From assembly GCA_038888155.1 (NCBI GenBank), contig JAWAJB010000003.1:96001-160000 (forward strand): a stretch of 64,000 nucleotides of DNA, read 5' to 3'. Numbering within the stretch: position 1 is the stretch's first letter; each line of letters starts with the position of its first letter. This stretch comes from Desulfurococcaceae archaeon (lineage in GTDB: Archaea > Thermoproteota > Thermoprotei_A > Sulfolobales > Desulfurococcaceae). Positions 50,268 through 64,000 of the stretch are shown here, in pieces. Under the pieces are notes generated by a model. It saw nothing but the letters and a program-made list of their open reading frames with translations, ran no database searches and had not been told where the DNA came from. Position numbers and translations under genes: made by a program.

Positions 50268-51341
50268 ATGGAGCCACGACTATACGTAGCTACGCTGGCA
50301 TCGCTTTGGCTTGTTATAAACATTGTATATAAGCTTTACCTGCAAAGAGCGAAGTTCAGAAACCTCAGCGTTGACTTAAAGTACTGGTTTCTGCTTATAA
50401 TTAAGAGGCAGAGCTCGCCTGCTCCGTCGAGCAAGTACAGAGGTCCCTACATTGCGCTCAGCATACTCCTATACGCAGTAGCCTCTGCCCTCGCGTTCTA
50501 TACCCTAATATACACGTTGTACTCGGGTCTGTTTATGCAAGTTCGAGGAACAGTTGTACTAGTACCTGGGCTGAACATCACTGGCGAAGACCTCGTCTTC
50601 TTTCTACTTGCTGTAGGTATAGCTGTTTCTCTCCACGAGTACTTTCACGCTAAGCTGGCCTTGAAGGCAAATATACCAATTAAGTCCTACGGATTTGCGC
50701 TCGCTTTAATATTCCCCGCAGCCTTTGTTGAAATAGATGAGAGCTCCTTTGAGAGAGCCGCTAAAGTCGCAAAGGTAGGGATCCTAGCCGCTGGAGTGTC
50801 AATAAACTTAGTTCTATTTGGTCTCTCAGCGCTCCTTTTGAACTCGATTGCATCCCCAGCTGGTTTAACAGTCGTAGAAGTCGAGGAGGGTGGCCTCGCT
50901 TGGGCTAGCGGAATAAAGCAGTACGACATTATATACAGCATTAACAACACAGAGGCCACTCTAACCTCCCTAAGGGAGTACTTAAGCATTAACAGGACAG
51001 TGACATTAGAGCTTGAAGTGTACAGGCCTGGAGTAGGGTTCCTCAGCATAACGCTAGTGAAGGTCGCAACTGTTAACAGGCTAGGGGTGTATATCTCGTT
51101 AGCTCCGCCTAGGCAGCTCGCTTCACTAGTGCATCCAGCGGGGTTCATCACACTGTTCAAGCTCACTTACTGGAACTACGTAGTTAACTACAGCCTGGTG
51201 TTCCTCAACGCGCTACCGCTGTTCATAACTGACGGAGGCAGAGTTTTCAGAGAGGTCCTTGGCGATAAGCTAAGTAAAGCGGTAAACACGCTAGTGTTAA
51301 TTGTGCTGGCGGTATCCCTACTTGTGAGCTTGAGGCTTTAA
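50268..51341 (+). CDS. Site-2 protease (M50) with PDZ-like insert
   Basis: HEYFH, AFVE, AGV..N, NALP...TDGG. Confidence 0.92.
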   Translation: MEPRLYVATLASLWLVINIVYKLYLQRAKFRNLSVDLKYWFLLIIKRQSSPAPSSKYRGPYIALSILLYAVASALAFYTLIYTLYSGLFMQVRGTVVLVPGLNITGEDLVFFLLAVGIAVSLHEYFHAKLALKANIPIKSYGFALALIFPAAFVEIDESSFERAAKVAKVGILAAGVSINLVLFGLSALLLNSIASPAGLTVVEVEEGGLAWASGIKQYDIIYSINNTEATLTSLREYLSINRTVTLELEVYRPGVGFLSITLVKVATVNRLGVYISLAPPRQLASLVHPAGFITLFKLTYWNYVVNYSLVFLNALPLFITDGGRVFREVLGDKLSKAVNTLVLIVLAVSLLVSLRL

Positions 51342-51353
51342 ATAGCCATAGGT

Positions 51354-51641
51354 GCCCGCGGGCGAGCTTTACGCGCCAAGTAGGGCAACCCGCTAGAGCC
51401 TTCTCACACCGGCTCCCACCGGTGACCCATGAACGCTGGTGTCCAGGGTTAGGTTGCTCCCTTCCGGGCCTGGCCAGGTTCCCCCAGCTAAGGTGGTTGA
51501 CCCCCTCCCTCCAGAGGGAGCTCCACCTCCACCAGCCCCATGGGGCGGAGTTCACTGCCTGCATGTGAGGGATAGCGGGCGCCTCTACCTGACGCGTAAT
51601 TGTCTGCCCTGGTAGTCCAGGGCCTACCCCTACCCGCGGGC
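51354..51641 (-). ncRNA. ffs: Signal recognition particle (7S) RNA
   Basis: Helix 8 GCCAGGCCCGGAAGGGAGCAACC; terminal helix GCCCGCGGG/CCCGCGGGC; long helix 5; TTTATAAA box ~25 nt upstream. Confidence 0.95.
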
Positions 51642-51698: not shown

Positions 51699-52367
51699 TC
51701 ACGGTTTAACTGGTCTTAGGCAACCGCTCTCCAGAAAGTATTCCTCATCTACATCGAAGTGCGTGCTTAAGTCTACTGTCGTTATCAATGCTACAGCTCT
51801 TTCCTTCTCAACGAAGCTCTCTATGTAGCTGTGGACTATTTTCATTGTATCGTCGTCCAGGCTAGAGTAGGGCTCATCAGCGACGATCAGCCTCGGCCTC
51901 TTAACTAGAGCTCTCGCTACAGCGACTCTCTGCCTCTGGCCCCCAGAGAGCTGGCTGGGGTAGGAGTTTTCAAGGCCGTGTAGCCCAAGCGCCTCAACTA
52001 ACATCCTAACGGCCTCATTTCTCCTCTCCTTGTTCACCCCTATGATCTTTAACGGCAGCTCAATGTTTTCATAAACTGACAGCTCTGGGAGCAACTTACA
52101 GTCCTGATCAACGTAGCCCAGCTCCCTCAGCCTTATTGAGGCAACCATGGACTCGCCGAGCTTCCACACATCCAGTCCGCGGTAAAATACCGTTCCTATG
52201 TGTGGTTTTATCAGCATAGACGCGACTTTTGCAAGAGTTGTCTTACCAACGCCGCTTTTACCGCGAACGAGGGTAACCGTGCCTTCAACTAGCTCTAAGT
52301 CAACGCCCCTGAGAACGAACTCGCCGCTGTACCTAAGCCACACGTTGGATAACTTAAGATAGGACAT
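51699..52367 (-). CDS. ABC ATPase, LolD/MacB-like
   Basis: GKSGVGKTT, Q-loop, LSGGQRQR, IVADEP; H-switch reads TTVD. Confidence 0.92.
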   Translation of the reverse strand: MSYLKLSNVWLRYSGEFVLRGVDLELVEGTVTLVRGKSGVGKTTLAKVASMLIKPHIGTVFYRGLDVWKLGESMVASIRLRELGYVDQDCKLLPELSVYENIELPLKIIGVNKERRNEAVRMLVEALGLHGLENSYPSQLSGGQRQRVAVARALVKRPRLIVADEPYSSLDDDTMKIVHSYIESFVEKERAVALITTVDLSTHFDVDEEYFLESGCLRPVKP

Positions 52368-53835
52368 GCAGATAACCTGCGTTAAATACTACGCTCCTAC
52401 AGTTAGGTAAGCTAGAGGGTAGCTTTATAAAGTCCACGGGAGATATTGGCACGCCATATATGTAGTTGCCCCTAGATAGAACAGCGAGTCCGCGTTGTCT
52501 GCACAAATCTACAGCCGTTAGCGGAGATATCTCAACAACTTCAGGCACCATGTAGGCGTACTTCGGGTCGCCAGAGATAGGAGCATCAATCGCCTTTAAC
52601 TTTACGAGATCTCCGAGAACTACGTCGTACTCTCCATACCTCCAGTAGAAGGTATAGGGATCCTCGCCGAGAGTTACCGTGGCAGTGCATCCCGCTGTAA
52701 TTACTGCTAACAGTGTGAACACTGCTAAACTGGACCTAGAGTTGCTCTCGCCTAGGCTAATACTCATCAATATAAGGGCGAAGACGAGGTAGTTGGCAAC
52801 CCTGTGGACAATCCCAACTGCTTCAACCGCATAGGACAAAATATATAGAAATATTGTCGCAATAGGCAGTAGAACACCCGCTCTCAGTCTACCTGCGGGC
52901 AGTTCAGCAGACTTGTAGGTAGCGGAGGAAATCAAAGGAACAATGTATAGGGCAAATGGAACAACGCTGATAGGCGCTGTAACAGTGTAGAGAAGCGATA
53001 TAACTGCTGGGAGCGCGGCAAAGGCCATAAGTAAACTAGAGCCCAGCCTGCCGAGGAAAAGGTAGGCTAAGTACACAGCTACTGCGTATAAGCCGAGTGA
53101 GGACAGGTCGTAGGCCGACATCCTCAGGGGTAGCTTGGTTGTTGCAGTTGAATAGATCGCAAAGGCTGAAAATAGAAGCATGCAGCATACTAGATACCTG
53201 CTGCTCAATTCTAGGGGCTTTCTGGCTCTAATCTTCCACGCGAAGTCGGCGTAGGCAGCGCTGAAGAGCACAGCCGTGCACATAGCGCTTGCAAGGGGGT
53301 GGCTTAGTACTAAAGCCGTAGAAAGTATGGATAACGCCAGCCAGCCCCTCAACTTATTCTCACGAGATGCTGCAAGGTAGAGAATTAAGGGAATTAACGT
53401 ATAGCCGTAGAACTCTTTGAGGTATGCAGATGTATAAATAGCGAACGAGGGCATTGAAGATATAGCTAGTGAAGCTAGTAAGCGGGATCCGCGGATACTC
53501 GCTAACCTACCTGCAAAGGTGTAAACTAGCACAAACATTGCTGAAGAGAGCATAGCTACGCCGATAAACATGAAAAACCACTCTATAGGCACGCCAGTGA
53601 CGATGGCGTACACAACGCACTCTAGTGTTGAGAGTGGATACTCAGCGTGGTGGCCGAAAGCTTCCGCTAGAGAGTATATGCCTAAGTTAGGGTTTTCTAG
53701 GACGCGCCTCGCTAAATGTACAAGAGGCCATACGTCGTTTGAGAAGAAAGTGCCCGTGTAAATACTCGGCAGTAGCCTAATTAAAGCAGTAAAGAGGAGA
53801 ATTGCCACAATAGGAACCAATCCGCTAAACTTCAA
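52354..53835 (-). CDS. Polytopic membrane protein, GT-C-like
   Basis: >10 TM; first loop SNDVW...YP, internal KE and LSHP motifs, soluble C-terminal tail. Confidence 0.6.
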   Translation of the reverse strand: MKFSGLVPIVAILLFTALIRLLPSIYTGTFFSNDVWPLVHLARRVLENPNLGIYSLAEAFGHHAEYPLSTLECVVYAIVTGVPIEWFFMFIGVAMLSSAMFVLVYTFAGRLASIRGSRLLASLAISSMPSFAIYTSAYLKEFYGYTLIPLILYLAASRENKLRGWLALSILSTALVLSHPLASAMCTAVLFSAAYADFAWKIRARKPLELSSRYLVCCMLLFSAFAIYSTATTKLPLRMSAYDLSSLGLYAVAVYLAYLFLGRLGSSLLMAFAALPAVISLLYTVTAPISVVPFALYIVPLISSATYKSAELPAGRLRAGVLLPIATIFLYILSYAVEAVGIVHRVANYLVFALILMSISLGESNSRSSLAVFTLLAVITAGCTATVTLGEDPYTFYWRYGEYDVVLGDLVKLKAIDAPISGDPKYAYMVPEVVEISPLTAVDLCRQRGLAVLSRGNYIYGVPISPVDFIKLPSSLPNCRSVVFNAGYLHVLS

Positions 53836-54919
53836 GGGCTCTTACCCCTCGAACGGCTCCTACTGCACATAGAGTGTAGTTGGCTACGGCTGTGTAGACA
53901 ACGCTCTGGATGCCTATTTCTAAGGGTATAGAGTAGTCCAAGAAAATTAGCGGCGGCATTAAATTTAGGCTGTACACTGCCAGGGACAGCACTACAGAGA
54001 TGAGTGTTAATACAGCTGTAAAAGAAAGCAGCACAAATACAAGGGCCCTCCTCGAAGCTCCTAGGGCTACAAATAGCTTCAACTCTCCGCGAAGGGCCTC
54101 CGCTATCCCTAACCCCAGTACAGGCAGGCCTAGAAGTGCTACTACAGATATTGAGTAGGCTGCGTAAATTATGTAATCCCTGTAGATCCCTAGCTTAAGG
54201 AAGTAAATCTCCGTTGGGCTTTCAGCGCCTCTTAGCTCAAAGATATCTCCTCTGCGAATTGCTACAAGGAAGGCCCTCCTAATTAGCCCCTCTAAATGTT
54301 GCTCGGCTTCAAGCCCTAAAGCCCTATAAACTTCATTTAAAGCGGTATTATCGTAGATGTACGCTACGGCAAAGCTGTAGTAACCTGGCTTAACGCCTCG
54401 AAGCCTAGCTATAGTAGAGTAGCTAACGCCGAGACCCGGTTTATCACCAATGCCGCACACTCTAAGGATTAAGACCTCACCGGTAAAAAGTGATTGAATA
54501 GGCAGGAAGCTACCCACAGCTGGGCCAACTCTACTTAGCACGCTTGTACTTGGGTAGAGGCATGTATCGTTGGCGATAGGCGTCTCGTAAAGCACAGTTG
54601 GTTCGCCGCCTAGAAGCCCAACAGTTATGAAGATTGGCTGTATCTCTACTTTGTCAACGGCGCTTAACTTTCCCTTGATGTACTCAAAGTTTATTAACGA
54701 TGTAAAAGGAGAAATAGCATCGCTAGATATAATGATAGTAGAGGTAGCAGCGGCGTCTCGAGGGTAGAATACATCGTACACTCTAGACAGAGAGCTTACG
54801 TAGCCAATCGCGTAGAGCGACAGCGTTGATAAAGCTGTAGAGACGAGAAGGGCGAGCACAAATAGGCTGACCTTTTTACTGAGAAGATATATTAGGATTG
54901 CCCTAAAGCAGCTTAACAC
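53825..54919 (-). CDS. FtsX/MacB-like ABC permease
   Basis: 1 TM + extracellular domain + 3 TM; RGELKLFVALGASRR equals the R.EI...ALGA motif. Confidence 0.75.
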   Translation of the reverse strand: MLSCFRAILIYLLSKKVSLFVLALLVSTALSTLSLYAIGYVSSLSRVYDVFYPRDAAATSTIIISSDAISPFTSLINFEYIKGKLSAVDKVEIQPIFITVGLLGGEPTVLYETPIANDTCLYPSTSVLSRVGPAVGSFLPIQSLFTGEVLILRVCGIGDKPGLGVSYSTIARLRGVKPGYYSFAVAYIYDNTALNEVYRALGLEAEQHLEGLIRRAFLVAIRRGDIFELRGAESPTEIYFLKLGIYRDYIIYAAYSISVVALLGLPVLGLGIAEALRGELKLFVALGASRRALVFVLLSFTAVLTLISVVLSLAVYSLNLMPPLIFLDYSIPLEIGIQSVVYTAVANYTLCAVGAVRGVRALEV

Positions 54920-55832
54920 CTCTAACCTCCCTCAAACTTATTACAATAGACACCAAAAGTGAGATACAAAGTACTTCAATCACCGCGAAAGCAATTGAGG
55001 TTTGTAGCAGTAGTGGTAGAGCAGGCCAATATAGGCTTATCAGCTTGTGTAGAGCGTTGAGAGCCACTGCACTTAGTGAGAGGAGGAAGACTGCTATCAA
55101 TGAAGATACAGTGAAGGAAGCAACAGTGAATCCTAGGGCAAGCTTTCCTCTACTGACGCCTAGATTAATCAAGGCAGTAAATTCCTCGCTGAGTATTCGC
55201 TGAACTCTCATTACAGCTAAGTAGGCCATTGGAATGTAGGCGAGGAATAAAGTGTTTAGCCAAGCCGTAGATGTCTCCCTAAGGCTTTCCTCTACGTATG
55301 CCAAAGCTCGCTTAAAAACGTCAGCCTGAGTTGCACTACAGAGCTTGACTCTACTTTCAACAGACATAAAGCCTACCTGTATAACGGCGTAAATGCCCTC
55401 GTGAACGTGTGAAACGCACTTCTCTACGTCCCCAATAACAACGTACTCGCCGCGGTGCTTTTCGTACACATCAGCTGGAATAGATATGAAATCGCAGTTT
55501 TCAGCAACTGCCTTAAAATCGACAAGGCCACTTCGTAGAAAATCCTCAGGGGTTGCAACTAGGGGCAGCTCAACGCTACCTATACGGGCAATGCCTGCTA
55601 TTTGCAAATCAAAGCAGCTATCGCGCCCATTAAAAACAACTAGCTTTATGCACTCCACGCTGCTTTGTTGCGGAACTGTATCTACAAATACAGTTAGGCT
55701 TGGGACAGAGAGCAGAACTGCCGACAGCAATAAGGGGGGCGCAAAAGCGGCAATTAAGACTTTATATGCGCCTTTCCTAAAGATAGATAGAAGAATTGCA
55801 GAGATAATCCCTCTCAATTTCACACTCAGCAA
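54903..55832 (-). CDS. FtsX/MacB-like ABC permease (second paralogue)
   Basis: Same topology; EEFTALINLGVSRGK motif. Confidence 0.7.
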   Translation of the reverse strand: MLSVKLRGIISAILLSIFRKGAYKVLIAAFAPPLLLSAVLLSVPSLTVFVDTVPQQSSVECIKLVVFNGRDSCFDLQIAGIARIGSVELPLVATPEDFLRSGLVDFKAVAENCDFISIPADVYEKHRGEYVVIGDVEKCVSHVHEGIYAVIQVGFMSVESRVKLCSATQADVFKRALAYVEESLRETSTAWLNTLFLAYIPMAYLAVMRVQRILSEEFTALINLGVSRGKLALGFTVASFTVSSLIAVFLLSLSAVALNALHKLISLYWPALPLLLQTSIAFAVIEVLCISLLVSIVISLREVRGVKLL

Positions 55833-55861
55833 ACCCCCACAGTAAACATGTTAGGCAAAAG

Positions 55862-56779
55862 CTACGCGCTAGATCTATTAATTAGCTCTTTTATTAAACG
55901 CCTTATCCTCAGCTCCATTCGCTTGAGATACATTGATAGAATCGCCAGCATGAACGCCTGAAGTCCCGCTATAGTTAAGAACACAGCCACTAAGCCCTTA
56001 ACGTAGTAGTTTATCCCAGTAAAAAAGTAGTGGTAGGCTACATATCCCCCTATTATGAGCCCGGGAATAACTATTGTGCTGGCACACATTAGCAACATCG
56101 TGACCGGGCTATACCTCCACGCTAGCCTTACGATATCTATTGCTATCTGAAGCCCACTAAAAGCGGTAAGCTTCTTTCTACCAAGCCTTTTCCTGTACTC
56201 AATTCCGTACTCGTAGTAAGGTATTCCCTCCCCTACTACGTGGGCAACTAACTCTACCTCAATGCTAAAGTTCTTTGTCTCGAACAGCATGTCCCTGAAC
56301 TCATCAATGTTGAGCAGGTACATGCCAGTACAAACGTCATATAAGTTGCCGCCAATTAAGACGTTGAATAAGTTGGTTAGAAGCCAATTACCAAGCCTAT
56401 TCAAAATAGGTATGTTCTCCCTTCCGTACACCCTCTTGCCTGAAACGAATGAGATGCCCCTCTCTTTAGCTTCTTTAAGCAAAGTAGGTATGAACTTAGC
56501 TGGGTAAGTGTAGTCGCCGTCCATAACCAGTACGTACTTTGTTGAAACACGCCTCAGCCCGGTTCTAATAGCATCGCTTTTGCCGTTGCCCTCTTGCTCA
56601 ACCAGCACTACCCCTCTGCTCTTCACAATCTCAGCTGTCCCATCAGTGCTGTGCCCATCAACAACGATAACCCTCTCCCTAGGAACACCTACCGATAAAA
56701 CCTCATCTAAAACCCTCCCAATTGCCTCCTCTTCGTTTTTTACAGGAATAAGCACTGTAATGTCTTCTAGGTAACTCAT
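55862..56779 (-). CDS. GT2 polyprenol-phosphate glycosyltransferase (DPM1/GtrB-like) with two C-terminal TMs
   Basis: LIPVKNEE, VVDGHSTDGT, GK..AI, MDGDYTYP, G.R, D..TG, F.IEVE, R.G..KL. Confidence 0.9.
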   Translation of the reverse strand: MSYLEDITVLIPVKNEEEAIGRVLDEVLSVGVPRERVIVVDGHSTDGTAEIVKSRGVVLVEQEGNGKSDAIRTGLRRVSTKYVLVMDGDYTYPAKFIPTLLKEAKERGISFVSGKRVYGRENIPILNRLGNWLLTNLFNVLIGGNLYDVCTGMYLLNIDEFRDMLFETKNFSIEVELVAHVVGEGIPYYEYGIEYRKRLGRKKLTAFSGLQIAIDIVRLAWRYSPVTMLLMCASTIVIPGLIIGGYVAYHYFFTGINYYVKGLVAVFLTIAGLQAFMLAILSMYLKRMELRIRRLIKELINRSSA

Positions 56780-56906
56780 TTCAGCCCCTCTGACATTAAT
56801 TTAGTAGCTCGCAGAATTAAAAAATCTATTTACATCCATGCAGGGGAGCGTTGAAAAGGCCGTCCTACACTTGCTGAGCGAGCGCATTGGCGCTTATAAC
56901 AATTAG

Positions 56907-56931
56907 GTCTCTATAAGCAATTAATAGAGAC
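56907..56931. promoter_or_regulatory. Inverted repeat GTCTCTAT-N9-ATAGAGAC between divergent operons
   Basis: Perfect 8-bp arms directly upstream of TATA-like TTTAAGTA (56932-56939). Confidence 0.5.
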
Positions 56932-56989
56932 TTTAAGTACACGAAGTCCAAGTTTGAAGTCTTCACCCTGTGTTCATTGGTGTTGTCAA

Positions 56990-58630
56990 TTGGCATCCAG
57001 AGTGGACTACGAGAAAGGCATAGTTGCAGGGTATTTGGCAATTATATCTATTGTAGCTTTAATGGCCCAAGGTACTTACAGAGAGTACATTGAGTCCGCC
57101 CTCAGGCTTATGTTCTCTGAAGACTACAGCTACTTGCTAGTTGTACTTACACTAGTTATTTACGCTATTTACTCCTATATAAAGCGCGCAGGCTTTACAA
57201 GTGAAATACAGCTTAGTAGACTGCTTGTATCTCTTCTCTTAGCTGTAAGCTCTATTGCACTGTACTACGCCTCTAAGTTAACAGTAGAGCTCTCTCTACA
57301 CGTGCTTGGATTAAGCTTCGCCGCTGCAGTTGTATCTGTATTGATTATACTATTCAAACCAGCAAATATTGGAGAAGCCACTTTATTTTTAACCCCCCTT
57401 CTCACTGCGCCCATTCCAGCTAATGTCGTAGACGCAATTACGATAGGGCTCTCTAAATTTCTAGGCGCGCTAGTAGCTACCTCTACAGGCGCTAGACTTA
57501 TAAGCACTGACGATCTCTCCCTAATTGAGGTCGAGACAAGCCAGGGCGCTATCACAGTTAGCGTTGAGGCAACATGTAGCGGAATCCCGTTGCTTAGCGC
57601 AGTAGTGGCGACTATTGCGATATTACCGCACTACCTTGCTTCAACCCGCGAGAACGCGCTCAAGAAGCTTAGGACATCGCTAGTAGCCCTGTTGATTAGC
57701 CTCTCTATAGGACTCGTTGGAAGCTATGCGAGGGGGGCGCTCATTGTATTAGTTGCGAGATGTTGCGGTGTAGACGCTGCAATTGCCTCCCTCTGCTACA
57801 TGCCCTCAGCAATTTACGCGGCACTCTCAGCTTCTCTAGCCTATGCCTTGATCAAAAGATCAGCTGGAGTGAACTCAGCGCAGGCAAGTACAAGCAGAAA
57901 ATTCTTGAATTTCGAGTACATGACCTTGACGGTAGCAATAGCAGTAGCAGTTATGATGCTAATACAGGGCTTGACTTTTATAGGGGCAGGCAACAGCTAC
58001 ATGCGTAGTAGTATTGCAGTTGGAGCAAATGCCTTTAGTGAAGTGCTAAAAAACCCAATCGCGCATTTTTTTAGCAACAAGGCAGAAGTTATAGACTCAG
58101 CGCACGATGTCCTTCTAACTAGGGCCATGGGGGCTATATCCCTTTACAGAGTGAGCGCTACAGTTAACAGCACGCAGTATCTTGGATTTGTAGAGTTAGT
58201 GGATACTCCTGCAAGATTGCACACACTGCAGCTGTGTTTAAGGCTTCAGGGCTTCAGCGTGATAACATCTTGGGGAGAGCTTTACAAGTCCCTTCAACTG
58301 GGGTACATTATCGTGGAGAAAGAAAACACCAAGTACATTCTACTATATACCTTGCTTCCCGTTGAATTTCAAGCCCCAGGAGAAAGCCAGGCGCTCTACG
58401 CAAGGATTTCAATATTCAAGCCGTACAGAGGCGTTCAAGACTTAGAGTCTGTTAGAGCAGACTTACTGGAAGCGATAAGCATTAAAATCAGCCATGAGGC
58501 TGTAAGCCCGTGGAGCAACACTATAGGCGCCTTCAGCTTATCTATTGTAGCTTTATTTATTTCGCTTGTACTGTATTCTCTCATGGTTTACGCATACAGG
58601 TATATTCACCTAAAGGGGGCTAGACCTTGA
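56990..58630 (+). CDS. Exosortase/archaeosortase-family protein fused to an EpsI-like domain
   Basis: Multi-TM domain with VEATCSG (catalytic Cys) and downstream Arg (SYAR), then an extracellular domain with ARLHTLQLCLRLQGF (H...C....G motif of EpsI), and a C-terminal TM; TTG at 56990 after GGTG. Confidence 0.8.
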   Translation: MASRVDYEKGIVAGYLAIISIVALMAQGTYREYIESALRLMFSEDYSYLLVVLTLVIYAIYSYIKRAGFTSEIQLSRLLVSLLLAVSSIALYYASKLTVELSLHVLGLSFAAAVVSVLIILFKPANIGEATLFLTPLLTAPIPANVVDAITIGLSKFLGALVATSTGARLISTDDLSLIEVETSQGAITVSVEATCSGIPLLSAVVATIAILPHYLASTRENALKKLRTSLVALLISLSIGLVGSYARGALIVLVARCCGVDAAIASLCYMPSAIYAALSASLAYALIKRSAGVNSAQASTSRKFLNFEYMTLTVAIAVAVMMLIQGLTFIGAGNSYMRSSIAVGANAFSEVLKNPIAHFFSNKAEVIDSAHDVLLTRAMGAISLYRVSATVNSTQYLGFVELVDTPARLHTLQLCLRLQGFSVITSWGELYKSLQLGYIIVEKENTKYILLYTLLPVEFQAPGESQALYARISIFKPYRGVQDLESVRADLLEAISIKISHEAVSPWSNTIGAFSLSIVALFISLVLYSLMVYAYRYIHLKGARP

Positions 58631-59577
58631 GCGCGTTTGACTTCGACAAGATAAGGGAAACGCTTAGAGAAGTTGTCAGCGCTATTTCAAAAGTACACGT
58701 TGGCAAACAGGATATAGTAAAGTACGCAGTCGCAACCCTCCTTGCGGGTGGACATCTACTAATTGAGGGCTACCCTGGAACTGGGAAAACACTGTTAGCT
58801 AAGGCGCTCGCCAAAGCAATAAGCGGTGAGTATCGGAGGGTGCAAGGCCACCCAGATATACTACCCAGCGACATTATTGGTTTCCATATGTATAGGCCTG
58901 GCGGCGAAAGGATATTTATAAAAGGACCAATATTTACTAACATACTGCTTTTCGACGAGTTGAACAGGACTCCAACGAGAACTCAGGCTTCACTGCTAGA
59001 GGCCTTGCAGGAATACCAAGTAACAGTGGATGGGATATCATACCCAATCTCGAGGCCGTTCATGCTTATTGCCACCCAAGTCGCAGAGAAGCACGCTGTA
59101 GGCTCGTATAAAGTTATGGAGACCTTGGCCGATAGGTTTACACTGAAGCTCTCCAGCTACTACAACCCTCCCGAAGAGGAAGCTGAAATAGTCGCCAAGG
59201 CCGATGCAATCTCATCTCTCCCAATAGAGCCCGTGATAAGTCTTGAGGACCTCAAAGCCATTTATGAATCTCTGCCAAGTGTCGTTGAGGTAAGCCCCCA
59301 TGTAATCGATTATATTGTCAGACTAGTAAACTATGTTAGGTCGCACCCCTCAGTTGCCTACGGGCCATCGCATCGCGCCACAATAGATATTGCAAGGCTC
59401 TCAAGGCCGCTAGCCCTTCTCGATGGGCGAGATTACGTAATACCGGATGACGTGAAGTCTATCTTTGTAGGCACAGTTGCACATAGAGTAAAGTTAAAAG
59501 AGGAGCACGAGCTTGAGGGGTTAACCGCAGAACCAATTATGCTGGAGGCACTGAATAATGTCCCAACTCCAAAGTAG
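58627..59577 (+). CDS. moxR: MoxR-family AAA+ ATPase
   Basis: GHLLIEGYPGTGKT, RVQ..PDILPSD, KGPIF, DELNR.P...Q..LLEALQE.QVT, DRF, GRDYV.PDDVK, HR. Confidence 0.95.
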   Translation: MSAFDFDKIRETLREVVSAISKVHVGKQDIVKYAVATLLAGGHLLIEGYPGTGKTLLAKALAKAISGEYRRVQGHPDILPSDIIGFHMYRPGGERIFIKGPIFTNILLFDELNRTPTRTQASLLEALQEYQVTVDGISYPISRPFMLIATQVAEKHAVGSYKVMETLADRFTLKLSSYYNPPEEEAEIVAKADAISSLPIEPVISLEDLKAIYESLPSVVEVSPHVIDYIVRLVNYVRSHPSVAYGPSHRATIDIARLSRPLALLDGRDYVIPDDVKSIFVGTVAHRVKLKEEHELEGLTAEPIMLEALNNVPTPK

Positions 59578-60283
59578 CGTAAGCAAATACTTCCAACCGC
59601 TAAAGCTGTATGCGCCAGCATACTCTGCTCTGCTTTTATATTCAGCTTTGATCTCGGTATTCTACTTCTATAAAGCCCAACTTATTCCACAATACCTCGC
59701 TATAGCGGTTTTATTTGCCCTACTCAACGCAGTGATGGCGCTTAGGAAGTTAATAGCACACTATATCCCAGTAACCCTCTACACCCTAACCGCGCTTGTC
59801 TACATGCTGTCCTCTCAAATGCTTGGAGGATTAGAGGGACTGCTTGAGGACGCAGTTGATGCGCTTCTCATCATAACGTTATTATTCACTTACGCCTACT
59901 GCAATTATCCAAGAGACCTGCAAGGAGCAATTCGACTGTACATTCCATTTATAGTGCTAGTTTCAACAATCATAGGCATTTACTTAGGCGTTGAGCGCCC
60001 CCTCCGGTTCTCGCTTCTAACGCTTATTGACTTGCTTGCATCTATTGCTGTATCTTTAGATAGCAGAGCCCCCCTTAGGTACGCATCCCCCCTGCTTTTC
60101 TTCTTTTTGCTCTACACCTCACCAATTGTAAATGTTAAGGCAGCCTCCCTAATTCTGTTCTCGCTACTTCACCTAACTAGAAACAAGTTGATATTAAGCA
60201 ACAGTCATAAACACATTAATTATGCAAACGCCGTTCTCAGCCTAGACTTATTGATTAAACCTATAGCGGTGTCACTGATATGA
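59558..60283 (+). CDS. Polytopic membrane protein
   Basis: Almost wholly hydrophobic; overlaps both neighbours. Confidence 0.7.
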   Translation: MSQLQSSVSKYFQPLKLYAPAYSALLLYSALISVFYFYKAQLIPQYLAIAVLFALLNAVMALRKLIAHYIPVTLYTLTALVYMLSSQMLGGLEGLLEDAVDALLIITLLFTYAYCNYPRDLQGAIRLYIPFIVLVSTIIGIYLGVERPLRFSLLTLIDLLASIAVSLDSRAPLRYASPLLFFFLLYTSPIVNVKAASLILFSLLHLTRNKLILSNSHKHINYANAVLSLDLLIKPIAVSLI

Positions 60284-60969
60284 ACACGCGCCTCTTCATT
60301 GTAGGCGTAGATGTAGTTATCATCTCAGCGCTACTAGCCCTCTACGGGTTAGCAGCAGGCGATCAGGGCCTTGTGGGAATAGGCACATCGATAGGTGTAG
60401 CAGGGAGCGTACTAGTTGCTTATAGCACCACTCCTAAGGAGCCTGTGCTCGGGGCAGTCCTCAGCTACACATCTATGCTAGCACACGCTGTTACAGCAGT
60501 AGCGGAAGACCTGGACCTCTTGAACAGCCGAGTATGCGCACACAATACGCCTTCCCTTGCTCTGATTTCATTCTCAAAATCTAAGTGCCCCAATAACCCT
60601 AACCCGGGTATAGGCCTCGCCGAAGGGTCCCCGTACATCTCAATTCCTGTCAGCGTGTTCCAAGAGGTAGGGGAACTAGAAGAGAGGAATGCACAAAACT
60701 TCGAGGAATCTCTCAACTCGCTACTAGTTGACGAACTTGGCGTGTGCAGTGCTGTTAGAGTTGAGCAGAGAGGAGATCTATTCATTGTTGACTTACTTGG
60801 TATATCGAAGCTACTAGCTGAGTACAGTAAGTATCCAGTAGACCCCGCTGCCCTCCTCTTGCTAGCTATTACTGCAAAGATAATGGGTGAATGTAGAGTA
60901 CACCTAGTTGAAAAAGAGTCAGCGCCAACGCATGAAAGGTTTGTAATAAGGGTGGAGGAAATTGCCTAG
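60280..60969 (+). CDS. Membrane-anchored hypothetical protein (2 TM + soluble domain)
   Basis: ATGA overlap with the upstream gene; N-terminal hairpin TMs. Confidence 0.75.
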   Translation: MNTRLFIVGVDVVIISALLALYGLAAGDQGLVGIGTSIGVAGSVLVAYSTTPKEPVLGAVLSYTSMLAHAVTAVAEDLDLLNSRVCAHNTPSLALISFSKSKCPNNPNPGIGLAEGSPYISIPVSVFQEVGELEERNAQNFEESLNSLLVDELGVCSAVRVEQRGDLFIVDLLGISKLLAEYSKYPVDPAALLLLAITAKIMGECRVHLVEKESAPTHERFVIRVEEIA

Positions 60970-61213
60970 AAGACAAGAGCTCTTGCCGTTTATCTACGTC
61001 CTGCTAGTAACTTCAATGAATATCTCTCTTTATACACTAGGTGAAAAGAGAGTTGACGCATACCTTGCATTAAATGTGCTGTTGTACTTTATTTCCTACG
61101 CAGTAGTTAGGCCATTTTATGCTGCGCCTCTCTTAGTTAAGGCGTTAAACGCTTCACTTTTGCTCGTATTTGCACTCATAGTGGCTTTCAGAGTTTACGA
61201 GGTGCTGTTCTAG
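60962..61213 (+). CDS. Small 3-TM membrane protein
   Basis: Hydrophobic, operonic overlaps, GGTGGAGG RBS. Confidence 0.7.
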   Translation: MPRRQELLPFIYVLLVTSMNISLYTLGEKRVDAYLALNVLLYFISYAVVRPFYAAPLLVKALNASLLLVFALIVAFRVYEVLF

Positions 61214-62958
61214 TGAAGAGAAGGTTTTACATGCTTGTAGCGTTGCTCATGCTGGCAGCCTACCAAGTGCAAGCTCCTGCACTTAGCTCTTCAAGCAACA
61301 CTGACTGCCTCTACCTACTTGAACTTATGGATATAGTGTTAGATTACGCAATTAAGGGAGACACTAATGGTGAGTTAATGTCTCATTACCTCCTAGAATC
61401 TGCAGTACCTACTGAACTTAGGAGCCTACACGTTAATGCATACAGAGCAGTCCTCAACTACTACAGCATTTTGCGCGGAGTTGAAGGGAGCTTAAGCACT
61501 TCACTGCCGCGCCTTGCTCAAGTGAACCTAGAGCACATTGAGAGTTACGCTAATAGGCTTGCTGGGTGCAGCCGCGATAGAGAGGGGGCAAGAGCCATTC
61601 TCGCCTCTATAAACTCGAAGATCCGCAGGCTGGAAGAATTCGCGTTTCAAATAACTAAATTCCACTATGTAAATCAAACAGGTGAAGGCTACTACATACT
61701 TCAGCTCAAAGACTTGTACCTCCCCTATGAGGCAGTTGAGCTCGTTGTCTCCAAGGAACTTCAGCCCGGTTCGGTTGAGGTGTACACTTATCCAGACCAC
61801 GTTAAAATATCTGACTTTAAGCCCGCTGAAATTAATGAAACGCACTGCAAATTTACAGTAGATCTCCCCTCGGCATTTACTATTGAGATGTTGCACTCAA
61901 CAATTGCACAAGAGGTCCCTCTCGCCCTTTACTTGAGGCTAGTGAACGGCTCGTATAGACCTGTCGCGCTACTAAAAGTCCAGTACGGATTGCCGAACAT
62001 CCAGCTGGACTTCCCTAGGGCAATCAAGTACAGCGAACCGCTAAATATCACTTTAGTTTCAGACAGGCTCTACAACGCAACTCTGTACTTCAACAACTTT
62101 AAGTTTGCCGCTATGCTGCTTAGGCCAGGCATGACGCACATCTCGCTAGATTACTCTTCACTAAACTATACCTTTGGGTTGAACAGAGTCAAGCTATGTG
62201 TAAATGCTACGCGAGAAACGCTATCGAGGTGTTTCGATAGACCAGTCTACATAGAGCCCCTATATCCGCGCGTAAAAGTAGTTGCTGAAAACGTGTCTAT
62301 TGCTTGGCTAGGCTATGCAGCTCTGCTAATTAGGAACGAGGACGCAGGTGATGTGCGCGTAACTGTGATCGACTTAAGCCCAAAAACTTTATTCTTAGCT
62401 GGTGGCGAGATGCAAGAGGTAGAGATATACAGCGGCTTTTTGCCTATACAGGTAGTAAATCTTAGAGTTGTAGTTGAGCCGACTAATGAGGTATACAGCA
62501 CTTTAGAACAAAGCTTGAGCGTAATCGCTATTAATGTCCCGGCTTTAATTCTCCTCACTGTAGCATCCGTTTTAGTTGTGCCCTCAGTAGCGGGGCATGA
62601 AAGGAGCTTTACCCTAGCATTTACTTCAGCCTTGGGGAAGGCACAGAGGGCTTCTCCCAGCACGAAAGCGCCATTAAAGAGCGGTATTTTAAAGCCGCAC
62701 GAGCTGGGCCTAAATTCGCGGATAGCAGAGCTCTACTACACTCTACTAAGAAAGCTAAAGCTAAGGCTGCCCCTTTTGAGCGAAACCCTTAGGGAACACT
62801 ACACAGCTACACTAGGGCTTACACCTGAAAAACTTAGAGAGAAGCTGTGGAGACTTCTACTGCTCGTAGAGAGAGACCTCTACTCAAGCAAAAAACCCGC
62901 GTATAAAGAAGCTGAAGGGCTATACAGTGGTGTCCTAGATGCTACTACCGAGAATTAA
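61213..62958 (+). CDS. Secreted/membrane protein with C-terminal DUF4129-like domain
   Basis: Signal peptide MKRRFYMLV..., large extracellular region with several NxS/T sequons, TM, then ELYY...SETLREH...VERDLYS. Confidence 0.7.
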   Translation: MKRRFYMLVALLMLAAYQVQAPALSSSSNTDCLYLLELMDIVLDYAIKGDTNGELMSHYLLESAVPTELRSLHVNAYRAVLNYYSILRGVEGSLSTSLPRLAQVNLEHIESYANRLAGCSRDREGARAILASINSKIRRLEEFAFQITKFHYVNQTGEGYYILQLKDLYLPYEAVELVVSKELQPGSVEVYTYPDHVKISDFKPAEINETHCKFTVDLPSAFTIEMLHSTIAQEVPLALYLRLVNGSYRPVALLKVQYGLPNIQLDFPRAIKYSEPLNITLVSDRLYNATLYFNNFKFAAMLLRPGMTHISLDYSSLNYTFGLNRVKLCVNATRETLSRCFDRPVYIEPLYPRVKVVAENVSIAWLGYAALLIRNEDAGDVRVTVIDLSPKTLFLAGGEMQEVEIYSGFLPIQVVNLRVVVEPTNEVYSTLEQSLSVIAINVPALILLTVASVLVVPSVAGHERSFTLAFTSALGKAQRASPSTKAPLKSGILKPHELGLNSRIAELYYTLLRKLKLRLPLLSETLREHYTATLGLTPEKLREKLWRLLLLVERDLYSSKKPAYKEAEGLYSGVLDATTEN

Positions 62959-63781
62959 GGCCTATACGCTATTTATTGCGCTCGGAGCTCTAGTTGGGCT
63001 GTTTACACTAATCTCTCTGCCGTCAACTGTGCCCTACAGCGTGGCTAATCGGGGACCCAGCGGGCTTTATACTCTACGTACATTGTTGAATGCTGAAGTA
63101 CTGTACTCACTAGACGGACTGGAAAGCTTCAGCAGCAAGAGCACGCTGTTGATCTCAGCTCGCTCTAAGCCTATTGGCGAGGCTCAAAAACTGCTCAACT
63201 TCGTAATGGAGGGGGGAACGGCCCTGATTTACGGATCACCAGAAAACGTTATTAACTTGCTCAGGGAGATGGGCATATACACGAGCTTCAGGGGATACGT
63301 TCGGGACATAGTATTCAACGTTGAAGGCAACTTAAACACTGTCGTAGCATATAATACTAGGTACACGAGGGTTGTTTTTAAAAATCCCTATACGCTCGGC
63401 GTGGATTTCAGCGAAGAGGGTATAGCTGCGTGGAGCAGCGTATTTTCACACGTCGATATAAATGGAAACGGCGCGTACGATCTAGGTGAGCCGATAGGCA
63501 TGTTTCCACTTGGTTTAGAGATTGCCTATGGTTCCGGTAAAATAGTGGCCTTGTTTACTGAGCAGCTACTGGAAAATGATGTCTTAGATTATAACCTAGA
63601 GCTTATTACCGCAGAATGTGAAAACAAGAGAGCATTAATAGATCAGTCTGAGGTAGCGCTCTACCCAATGGAGGCTCTAAGGGCTTACTTTGTGCACAGT
63701 ATGCCCCCCGCTAATGCACATTTAGTTTTAGTCCTAGTAGCAATACTCTCTACGGTTGCGTACTATGCAACTAAGAGATGA
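62939..63781 (+). CDS. DUF4350-like membrane-anchored protein
   Basis: N-terminal TM, PYS..N.G.SGL, FV..GG..LI, G.GKIV, N; D.NGNG.YD loop; C-terminal TM + KR. Confidence 0.7.
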   Translation: MLLPRIKAYTLFIALGALVGLFTLISLPSTVPYSVANRGPSGLYTLRTLLNAEVLYSLDGLESFSSKSTLLISARSKPIGEAQKLLNFVMEGGTALIYGSPENVINLLREMGIYTSFRGYVRDIVFNVEGNLNTVVAYNTRYTRVVFKNPYTLGVDFSEEGIAAWSSVFSHVDINGNGAYDLGEPIGMFPLGLEIAYGSGKIVALFTEQLLENDVLDYNLELITAECENKRALIDQSEVALYPMEALRAYFVHSMPPANAHLVLVLVAILSTVAYYATKR

Positions 63782-64000
63782 AGCTCTAAAGTATGGAGCC
63801 CTAGTTGTGGAAGTTGCTGGTTGTTTAGCTGCTTATACCCTCGCTGGCTACCCTACTCTAGTTCTGTTGCCCTTTCCAGCTCTACTACTAGTGGGAAACC
63901 CGCACATATGGCTTATATCCTCGCTATCCTATTGTTTTCTACTTTCAACGCTTTTAGATCAACCGGTATTGAACCTACTTGCAGTGCTATTAGCATCTGC
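63765..64000 (+). CDS. Partial hydrophobic ORF running off the right edge (possibly the DUF58 partner of MoxR)
   Basis: ATG at 63765 overlapping the previous stop; open to the end: MQLRDEALKYGALVVEVAGCLAAYTLAGYPTLVLLPFP...; the DUF58 identity is inferred from context only. Confidence 0.6.
   Translation, partial: MQLRDEALKYGALVVEVAGCLAAYTLAGYPTLVLLPFPALLLVGNPHIWLISSLSYCFLLSTLLDQPVLNLLAVLLAS

Follow-up and report, generated by a model that had tools for sequence, protein, structure and literature searches.

In a 64,000-nucleotide stretch of DNA from a Desulfurococcaceae archaeon (contig C3, positions 96001-160000, of assembly G000; hereafter the window), we characterised a divergent cluster of membrane-protein genes that begins at position 51699 and runs past the right end of the window. 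The cluster is probably the version found in Desulfurococcales of an envelope machine conserved among archaea, in which a core of the arCOG01314 (DUF4350) type is partnered by an ATP-binding cassette (ABC) transporter containing a GT-C-like gene and by a family 2 glycosyltransferase (GT2), with an exosortase-EpsI-like protein as an accessory. The same families recur together in several gene orders, and the cluster is thus a real conserved arrangement rather than a product of chance.

An earlier reading of this DNA, hereafter the original prediction, had proposed one machine that charges a lipid carrier, glycosylates, cleaves or anchors, and releases an envelope protein. Its two arms are indeed conserved together; the exosortase is not central to the assembly, however, and no substrate for it was found.

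Gene content of the divergent cluster

The open reading frame (ORF) listing places 13 genes between position 51699 and the window end, five on the minus strand (51699-56779) and eight on the plus strand (from 56954 onwards). The last of these, starting at 63756, runs past the window end and reaches a full length of 543 amino acids (aa) on the contig, where it is followed by three co-directional genes encoding proteins of 141, 168, and 185 aa; counting these three, the complete unit read from the contig holds 16 genes. Minus-strand junctions comprise three overlaps of 11-17 nt and one 29-nt gap, plus-strand junctions are overlaps of 1-26 nt, and over both arms 10 of 11 junctions overlap, by 1-26 nt. 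The spacer from which the arms diverge measures 174 bp to the first TTG of the exosortase-like gene (56954), or 210 bp if the TTG at 56990 is taken instead, which is the start used by P0001, a 95%-identical homologue of the encoded protein. These values agree with the earlier description of at least 12 tightly packed, mostly overlapping genes diverging from a spacer of about 210 bp. Judged from its sequence, the spacer is a putative promoter region. The features are as follows, with TM denoting transmembrane:

51699..52367, minus strand: ABC transporter ATPase, LolD/FtsE-like, 222 aa (PF00005, 98.2 bits)
52354..53835, minus strand: GT-C-fold membrane glycosyltransferase-like protein, 493 aa, inside the ABC operon (from its predicted structure)
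53825..54919, minus strand: FtsX/LolC-type permease, 364 aa, with TM1, a loop of about 200 aa, and three TM helices (hydropathy)
54903..55832, minus strand: second, divergent FtsX-like permease, 309 aa, with the same topology as the 364-aa protein
55862..56779, minus strand: GT2, polyprenol/dolichol-phosphate sugar synthase-like, 305 aa, with two C-terminal TM helices (PF00535, 87.3 bits)
56780..56953, no strand: divergent intergenic spacer, A+T-rich with TATA-like words (read from the sequence)
56954..58630, plus strand: exosortase-family polytopic protein of 558 aa, carrying an EpsI-like external domain and ending in a TM helix (by transitive homology and predicted structure)
58627..59577, plus strand: MoxR-type AAA+ ATPase, 316 aa (PF07726 AAA_3, 138.8 bits; PF17863 AAA_lid_2, 59.8 bits; both above cut-off)
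59558..60283, plus strand: 5-TM membrane protein of no recognisable family, 241 aa (topology)
60280..60969, plus strand: core component of 229 aa with two TM helices and a soluble domain (no family match)
60962..61213, plus strand: small 2-TM protein, 83 aa, core component (topology)
61213..62958, plus strand: protein of 581 aa in which a signal peptide, a large external domain, and a single TM helix precede a cytoplasmic DUF4129-like tail (from motif and position)
62939..63781, plus strand: DUF4350 (arCOG01314-type) protein, 280 aa (PF14258, 34.1 bits; cut-off 30.4)
63756..64000 and on to L001:4756-6387, plus strand: 543-aa membrane protein with a DUF58-like domain (from PF01882 and a signature motif)
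L001:6436-6861, beyond the window, plus strand: p141, 141 aa, next after the 543-aa gene
L001:6855-7361, plus strand: DUF1616 C-part, 168 aa (PF07760, 29.2 bits, cut-off 31.6, positions 153-236)
L001:7374-7931, plus strand: DUF1616 N-part, 185 aa (PF07760, 107.1 bits, model positions 5-118)

Linkage of the core and its partners across genomes

A related-loci search seeded with a 7-row alignment returned 6 loci. We also fetched 20 kb around each of 32 exosortase-family hits and annotated these segments with the window proteins and iterated profiles. The genes for MoxR, the 229-aa, 83-aa, and 581-aa proteins, DUF4350, the DUF58-like protein, p141, DUF1616-C, and DUF1616-N, here termed the core, occur together in 21 of these 32 loci, and one further locus is cut by a contig end. 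The exosortase gene stands either before MoxR or between the DUF58-like gene and p141. Among the 21 core loci, the GT2 is present in 10 and the ABC/GT-C module in 11; 16 have either and five have both. Both partners are found on either side and on either strand of the core, and in every locus with an ABC module the GT-C gene is flanked by the permease and ATPase genes. Because gene order and strand differ among loci while the families stay together, the linkage survives rearrangement.

Loci centred on p141 extend this picture. We annotated 18 of them, 15 from genomes with no exosortase hit and three (L083-L085) from a genus that encodes an exosortase elsewhere in the genome. All 18 carry the core and none carries an exosortase. 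In 11 the ABC/GT-C module adjoins the core, two more have weak matches to the 493-aa protein alone, and eight have the GT2. The 229-aa gene, found in 21 of the 32 exosortase-centred loci, is also conserved in most of the p141-centred ones, and the 83-aa gene is conserved beside it across loci. The original prediction had staked its case on the two arms being found together in related genomes; they are, and their linkage held through the rearrangements described above. Several carriers are complete single-contig genomes (e.g., G045, G060, G070, and G152) and may be cultured strains.

It is very improbable, in our assessment, that the arms are separate systems made neighbours by membrane-gene clustering, with the GT2 serving general N-glycosylation, the ABC transporter exporting an unrelated compound, and the MoxR core acting alone. 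The GT2 is AglJ-like and could serve a general pathway, FtsX-type ABC transporters are common, and both GT2 and ABC/GT-C are missing from the 20-kb segments of five of the 21 core loci. Against this, 16 of the 21 exosortase-centred loci and at least 14 of the 18 p141-centred loci have an orthologue-grade GT2 (E 1e-86 to 1e-149) or ABC/GT-C module no more than about 10 kb from the core, whereas a single-copy gene in a genome of 1.3-1.6 Mb would be expected in a 20-kb segment about 1-2% of the time by chance. The linkage is moreover kept despite changes in order and strand across several families of the class.

The exosortase is an accessory of a subset of lineages

The phyletic patterns were taken from a class sample of 301 genomes. 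The exosortase family was found in 67 of these, including 35 of the 54 genomes from the window's family, and the core marker p141 in 99; the two overlap in 55 genomes, and 44 genomes with p141 gave no exosortase hit. The 241-aa 5-TM protein occurs in 29 genomes, 28 of them exosortase-positive. This pairing is also evident in the window's own genus, where the 5-TM protein is encoded by all nine exosortase-positive genomes and by none of the six exosortase-negative genomes. In one genus the exosortase is encoded far from the cluster (L048, L055, and L056 versus L083-L085). Since genomes without an exosortase still have the core linked to the ABC/GT-C module and the GT2, and nearly half of the p141-bearing genomes lack a hit, the exosortase is an accessory of a subset of lineages, tightly co-occurring with the 5-TM protein, and does not organise the system as had been supposed.

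These patterns bear directly on the model of the original prediction, in which one exosortase-centred machine would charge a carrier and a dedicated protein would be glycosylated, cleaved or lipid-anchored, and then extracted by the LolCDE-like ABC transporter. All parts of such a machine are present and linked. The cluster includes the exosortase gene in 21 of 32 loci, the window protein retains its catalytic Cys and Arg along with the EpsI-like domain, and by analogy a LolCDE-like transporter beside a lipid-anchoring enzyme would be a coherent pairing. Nevertheless, we consider this model unlikely. The core, linked with ABC/GT-C and GT2, stands without an exosortase hit in 15 loci from 15 genomes, the remote exosortase of the genus mentioned above is hard to reconcile with a central role, and p141, the best candidate substrate within the cluster, keeps its C-terminal motif equally in exosortase-free genomes and carries it internally in two fusions.

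A conserved C-terminal signal for the exosortase was sought in several places. p141 combines a signal at the N-terminus with a helical domain and a strongly conserved C-terminal TM end reading 'S-I-P ... L-P-R ... W-F-K-x-R-R-K-W', and it stands beside the exosortase in several gene orders. We rejected it as a specific exosortase substrate: it is present in the 44 genomes without an exosortase, and its motif is equally conserved in 15 exosortase-free genomes and is internal to the fusions in L072 and L077. A complex prediction for the exosortase and p141 families scored 0.00 (mark 0.32), with controls not run, and carries no weight either way. The C-terminus of DUF4350 was likewise rejected as a sorting signal, as there is no conserved motif ahead of its TM helix. 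Stand-alone exosortases have no obvious substrate gene adjoining them. The dedicated envelope-protein substrate with a sorting signal that had been envisaged was not found in a genome-wide scan.

The 558-aa exosortase-EpsI-like protein

By homology and predicted fold, the 558-aa protein is an exosortase-EpsI fusion, and the window copy is a divergent member of its family. It has no Pfam or NCBIfam match even at E 10, and a six-frame search of the source genome with PF09721 found no match anywhere. The assignment is carried by its homologues, which are linked to it by phmmer at E 1e-95 to 1e-113 and are called 'archaeosortase/exosortase family protein' in public records; those at 36-45% identity match PF09721 at 50-54 bits (cut-off 25.7). 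The family comprises about 100 clusters at 50% identity, nearly all with members of 530-570 aa. We aligned 72 members as the set for counts of residues and of hidden Markov model (HMM) matches. PF09721 matched 53 of them and TIGR04178 matched 54. Bacterial exosortase models matched more members (EpsH 37, XrtA 34, XrtV 28, and XrtD 20) than archaeosortase models (ArtE 3 and ArtC 3).

Hydropathy places nine TM segments before residue 340 of the window protein, in keeping with the polytopic core typical of the superfamily, which has about eight helices. Its AlphaFold model, with a predicted local distance difference test (pLDDT) score of 91.5, has a polytopic core followed by another TM helix, then a beta-rich domain (354-507), and ends in a TM helix. 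Neither a PDB profile search with the exosortase family (no matches at E <= 1) nor a Foldseek search of the PDB with the model (none at E <= 0.001) found a solved structure for the core, and the C-terminal domain gave weak Foldseek matches to small beta-rich proteins of the PDB (3lyd, PsbP, and DcrB). In the ESM Atlas, residues 349-515 match EpsI/PF11984 clusters with a TM-score by query of 0.63, high enough for a name to be assigned, both sides being predicted models; residues 361-512 align to an EpsI-named cluster in which all members carry PF11984; and the same search matches an XrtD-named cluster carrying PF09721 and PF11984. At the level of sequence models, PF11984 matched none of the 72 members at E <= 0.001 and no EpsI model (TIGR02914) was among their NCBIfam matches. 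The call of an exosortase-like transpeptidase with an EpsI-like domain is therefore upheld through the HMM matches of the homologues and the EpsI-like fold, and not through any exosortase or EpsI HMM match of the window protein itself. From these models, it is likely that the EpsI-like domain works like EpsI.

Cys208 is kept in 64 and Arg260 in 67 of the 72 members, and both are intact in the window protein. Position 281 is His in 57 members and Arg in five; Cys occurs there in the window protein and its 95%-identical twin alone. Asn257 is replaced by Ser in the window protein; eight of the 72 have Ser at this position. In ArtA of Haloferax volcanii, the critical residues according to the accessible text are Cys173, Arg214, and Arg253 (PMC9263693); judged from motif context, Cys208 and Arg260 are the probable counterparts of the ArtA Cys and Arg, and position 281 is a candidate counterpart of Arg253.

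Because it fails both exosortase HMMs and has Cys281 where most relatives have His, the window exosortase could be inactive. One could go further and regard it as a catalytically dead scaffold or receptor, kept for its EpsI-like domain and its contacts with the 5-TM protein. The otherwise unshared Cys281 and the change of Asn257 would fit this idea, as would the score of the protein, which lies under detection with PF09721 and TIGR04178 while relatives 36-45% identical to it reach 50-54 bits. We nonetheless regard a dead scaffold as improbable. Cys208 and Arg260 are intact and the ORF is full-length; position 281 is other than His in 15 of the 72 members, including the five with Arg; the ArtA residues reported as critical are a Cys and two Arg, with no His (PMC9263693, accessible text); and the identity of the protein to its relatives (41-42%) resembles that of the neighbouring membrane proteins (39-55%).

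Relatives of this protein also occur outside the cluster. One group of divergent exosortase-EpsI paralogues (profile E ~1e-45) is found apart from the cluster in L060, L061, L065, L066, and L067, with an aRF1-like ORF about 3 kb upstream in each of the five. More distant exosortase-EpsI relatives (E 1e-13 to 1e-34) were detected in 19 genomes of other classes within a 401-genome phylum sample; these lie in longer open frames of 680-780 aa (e.g., G354:C26:12316-13992 and G578:C2:23111-24025).

Right-arm core genes

The literature trail from DUF1616 led through PMC8241124 and PMC6393860 to a 2015 paper in Biochimie by Makarova, Galperin, and Koonin, the accessible text of which describes an arCOG01314 (DUF4350)-associated 'putative novel secretion system' of archaea and proposes, as an alternative, a membrane-remodelling complex (PMC5898192). 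The parts listed in its Table 2 are DUF4350, MoxR, an Ig-vWA protein, pfam07760 proteins, and proteins with 2-3 and five TM helices. Matched component by component at the level of sequence families, the right-arm core from MoxR to DUF1616 is this system. According to PMC5898192 and PMC8241124, the arCOG01314 locus also occurs in the genetically tractable Thermococcus and Haloferax. The statement that no known system combines these parts had overlooked the 2015 prediction.

Two members of the core were confirmed by profiles above cut-off: the MoxR call by AAA_3 and AAA_lid_2, and the DUF4350 call by PF14258, the latter protein having TM helices at 9-27 and 260-278. The proposed DUF4129 membership was not borne out, since PF13559 is below cut-off in the one homologue that it matches and absent from the window protein. 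The 581-aa protein has no Pfam match, with none to PF13559 at E 10; the motif in its tail (P520, E524-T-L-R-E528, E553, and Y557) is invariant in 16 of 16 sequences. The tail may thus be termed DUF4129-like in position, the DUF4129 HMM falling short. The 543-aa protein is tentatively DUF58-like by its sequence: all 15 homologues compared share, without change, the DUF58 signature G-x-Y-x-G-x-R-x-Y-x-x-G-D ... I-H-W-K-K, and PF01882 scores 19.6-20.9 bits in four of 16 DUF58-like or fused ORFs scanned. The 168-aa and 185-aa proteins together are, from their PF07760 matches, a split DUF1616 (arCOG02884) with its halves in reversed order.

Fusions join several of these proteins in other loci. DUF4350 is fused to the DUF58-like protein (~800-840 aa) in L043, L044, L054, L064, and L069, and p141 is fused to DUF1616-C (315-321 aa) in L072 and L077. 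The 241-aa 5-TM protein and nine homologues have no Pfam match, and a cluster search with it gave four clusters, all unnamed. PDB profile searches with the 581-aa, DUF58-like, 229-aa, 309-aa, and 493-aa families returned nothing significant; the rows for nsp15 and apolipoprotein E (E 0.02-1) are noise.

Left-arm transporter and glycosyltransferases

The transporter and transferase calls for the left arm were largely sustained. For the 222-aa ATPase, PF00005 is joined by LolD (E 6e-43) and FtsE (E 1.2e-42) as the top NCBIfam rows, both under their equivalog cut-offs, with LolD the best. The family profile of the 364-aa permease finds LolC chains of E. coli (E 7.8e-4), the alignment covering the TM region at the C-terminus. 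The 309-aa permease has no Pfam match and no PDB sequence match; hhalign relates its family to that of the 364-aa protein over the C-terminal helices (probability 85%, E 6.4e-6), which supports, by profile comparison, its assignment as a distant paralogue of the latter. The claim of two FtsX-like permeases finds partial backing in the LolC profile match and the shared topology; PF02687 lies below cut-off in the 364-aa protein, and the 309-aa protein is connected via hhalign.

The 493-aa protein has no Pfam or NCBIfam match. Its predicted structure has a pLDDT of 63 and a predicted TM-score (pTM) of 0.67. In a Foldseek search of the PDB, all 25 of the best matches were GT-C enzymes (STT3/PglB/AglB, ArnT, AftB/AftD, and DPY19; best E 6e-4, probability 1.00), and its structure matches in the ESM Atlas are clusters carrying PMT_2/STT3. 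All seven homologues keep Asp34, which lies in the first external loop. Through the predicted model, these results support the GT-C fold that had been suggested for this membrane protein, with Asp34 as the acidic residue characteristic of that loop in GT-C enzymes.

The GT2 matches the AglJ model TIGR04182 (E 6.5e-52, 176.7 bits, cut-off 325) and the Dol-P-hexose transferase model NF041391 (E 1.5e-34, 118.9 bits, cut-off 375) and aligns end to end with the ArnC-type NF007986. By these sequence models it is clearly of the AglJ, Dol-P-hexose-transferase, or ArnC kind, but as it falls below the cut-off it is no AglJ equivalog. Together with PF00535, they confirm that it is polyprenol-phosphate-sugar synthase-like.

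Neighbouring genes and the source assembly

The left limit of the 16-gene array is an archaeal signal recognition particle (SRP) RNA gene, which lies directly downstream of the ABC ATPase gene:

51360-51629, minus strand: archaeal SRP RNA gene (RF01857, 132 bits, full length)

A 105-aa ORF at 51247-51564 is probably spurious because it overlaps the SRP RNA gene. Adjoining the latter, at 50268-51341 on the plus strand, is the gene for a membrane peptidase of the M50 (site-2 protease) type that carries a PDZ domain; among the related loci searched, none showed it next to the cluster. To the right of the 16-gene unit lies an unrelated beta-lactamase-fold gene in opposite orientation.

The same assembly contains a second, differently ordered paralogous cluster at C27:377-12586. 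It has no exosortase and encodes a protein like the 493-aa GT-C protein, an ABC ATPase, MoxR, DUF4350, the 83-aa TM protein, DUF1616-N, DUF1616-C, and a p141-like protein. A partial third cluster, consisting of a p141/DUF1616 triad, is found at a contig end (C8:27815-29335). The assembly measures 2.42 Mb with 6.43% contamination, compared with 0.9-1.5 Mb for genomes of the same genus, and the window cluster has its nearest counterpart in a genome (L052 = G106) assigned to another genus. The source bin may hold more than one organism.

RNA-library evidence

One metatranscriptome library contains seven short contigs, 99-100% identical to the cluster, that fall on the genes for the 309-aa permease, GT2, MoxR, the 229-aa protein, and DUF4350 at depths of 2-5. 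The SRP RNA gene is present at depth 188 in this library, so RNA of the source organism is in it. The seven contigs are compatible with low-level transcription of both arms. Among RNA runs searched at the level of raw reads, X2 and X3 gave no reads and X4 gave three at the edge of the SRP RNA; these runs have no bearing on expression. One RNA-library contig joins 56726-56788 to 55701-55846 (back 1088), and another lacks 2 nt at 60867. Each is single and at low depth, and both are probably assembly artefacts or strain differences.

Functional model and significance

The evidence assembled here is gene content, family and fold assignments, and conserved linkage, and from it we infer every biochemical step of the following model. 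MoxR and the DUF58 protein would use ATP to assemble or switch a membrane complex, of which the DUF4350, DUF1616, and 581-aa subunits would expose domains on the outer face. On the cytoplasmic side, the GT2 would load a sugar onto dolichol phosphate, and on the outer face the GT-C enzyme would move the dolichol-borne sugar to a protein or lipid. The ABC transporter, by analogy with MacB and LolCDE, may provide mechanical work at the outer face. Where present, the exosortase may remove the C-terminal membrane anchor of a putative surface protein and pass the protein to another acceptor.

Several observations weigh against reading the cluster as an envelope machine of this composition. In 10 of the 32 exosortase-centred loci, the core cluster is not nearby (three in one genus and seven in the divergent paralogue group), and the related genomes entering all of the locus counts are non-independent samples. 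Some family assignments fall short of their thresholds: PF02687 scores 17 bits (E 6e-3) in the 364-aa permease, under the cut-off of 25.5; PF01882 scores 20.1 bits in the 543-aa protein (cut-off 23.4) and covers model positions 2-25; PF13559 was found in one of 12 homologues of the 581-aa protein, at its C-terminal end, with 23.6 bits (cut-off 24.8); and the window exosortase fails both HMMs and has Cys281. Confidence in the GT-C model is low (pLDDT 63), and its TM-scores against solved GT-C enzymes are 0.33-0.46. Among 56 ORFs of at least 150 aa across the genome that end in a TM helix and basic tail, no shared C-terminal sorting motif was detected, the best being one paralogous pair. The metatranscriptome contigs could come from contaminating DNA. 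Finally, the searchable literature holds no experimental test of any component's function.

In a tentative extension of the model, which we regard as rather unlikely, the exosortase-EpsI and 5-TM proteins would form a plug-in sorting module acting on arCOG01314 cargo: a TM-anchored protein, glycosylated by the GT-C enzyme, would become lipid- or glycan-anchored or be released, with LolCDE-like extraction. If this were true, the module would be a sortase-like pathway in Thermoproteota, which the searchable literature does not describe for crenarchaea. Independently of this proposal, the findings place an exosortase-EpsI type enzyme in crenarchaea; the accessible text of a 2018 review limits archaeosortases to a subset of Euryarchaeota and lists Sulfolobales as without one (PMC6098224).

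Among archaeal membrane gene sets that await characterisation, the arCOG01314/MoxR envelope system, predicted in 2015, is one of the most widespread. Three modules attached to it have chemistry that is understood elsewhere (Dol-P-sugar synthase with GT-C, LolCDE-like mechanotransducing ABC transporter, and exosortase) and so offer testable handles on the machine. These modules point to glycosylation and handling of a surface component.

Comparison with known systems

The left-arm transporter resembles the type VII ABC systems LolCDE and MacB in combining two FtsX-like permeases (TM1, a large external loop, and three TM helices) with a LolD-like ATPase. It differs in being archaeal, with no outer membrane or Lol partners, and in having a GT-C gene embedded among its own.

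Polyprenol-phosphate sugar synthases of the GT2 family work in pairs with GT-C transferases in systems such as ArnC/ArnT, GtrB/GtrC, and Ppm1/PMT. The window encodes a comparable pair, a GT2 with C-terminal TM helices and a GT-C-fold protein with an invariant Asp in the first external loop, although no flippase gene was recognised in the window cluster. Compared with AglB/STT3, the GT-C protein is without the large C-terminal domain (493 aa versus 640-870 aa for the structural targets).

The 558-aa protein shares with bacterial XrtD/XrtB-type fusions (PF09721 with PF11984) a polytopic domain with Cys and Arg, a TM helix, an EpsI-like beta-rich external domain, and a length of ~530-575 aa. In contrast to these bacterial proteins, it has an archaeal host, an extra C-terminal TM helix, and no PF11984 or TIGR02914 sequence match; its genomic partner is the MoxR machine rather than an exopolysaccharide locus, and no PEP-CTERM-like substrate family was found. 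In archaea, ArtA of H. volcanii cleaves a tripartite C-terminal signal, made up of a motif, a TM helix, and a basic tail, and its substrates acquire a lipid anchor, according to the accessible texts of PMC6098224 and PMC9263693. The 558-aa family belongs to the same superfamily as ArtA but differs in having an added EpsI-like domain and in lacking a match to the ArtA model, and no PGF-CTERM-like family was found with it.

The closest counterpart of the whole is the arCOG01314 system. The words exosortase, archaeosortase, and EpsH are absent from the accessible text of the 2015 paper, supplementary tables aside (PMC5898192). In searches of the literature, arCOG01314 was mentioned by that paper alone, full-text searching found no paper joining an exosortase with MoxR or DUF58, and the attachment of ABC/GT-C, GT2, and, in some lineages, exosortase-EpsI with the 5-TM protein to the core is not described. 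Like the system as set out in the accessible text, the window cluster has DUF4350, MoxR, a DUF58/vWA-type partner, pfam07760 (DUF1616), and small proteins with 2-3 and five TM helices, mostly membrane-bound or external. Unlike the system described there, its DUF1616 is split, reversed in order, and preceded by a 141-aa partner, and the cluster as a whole is joined to a LolCDE-like ABC transporter with a GT-C protein, to a GT2, and, in a subset of lineages, to an exosortase-EpsI fusion.

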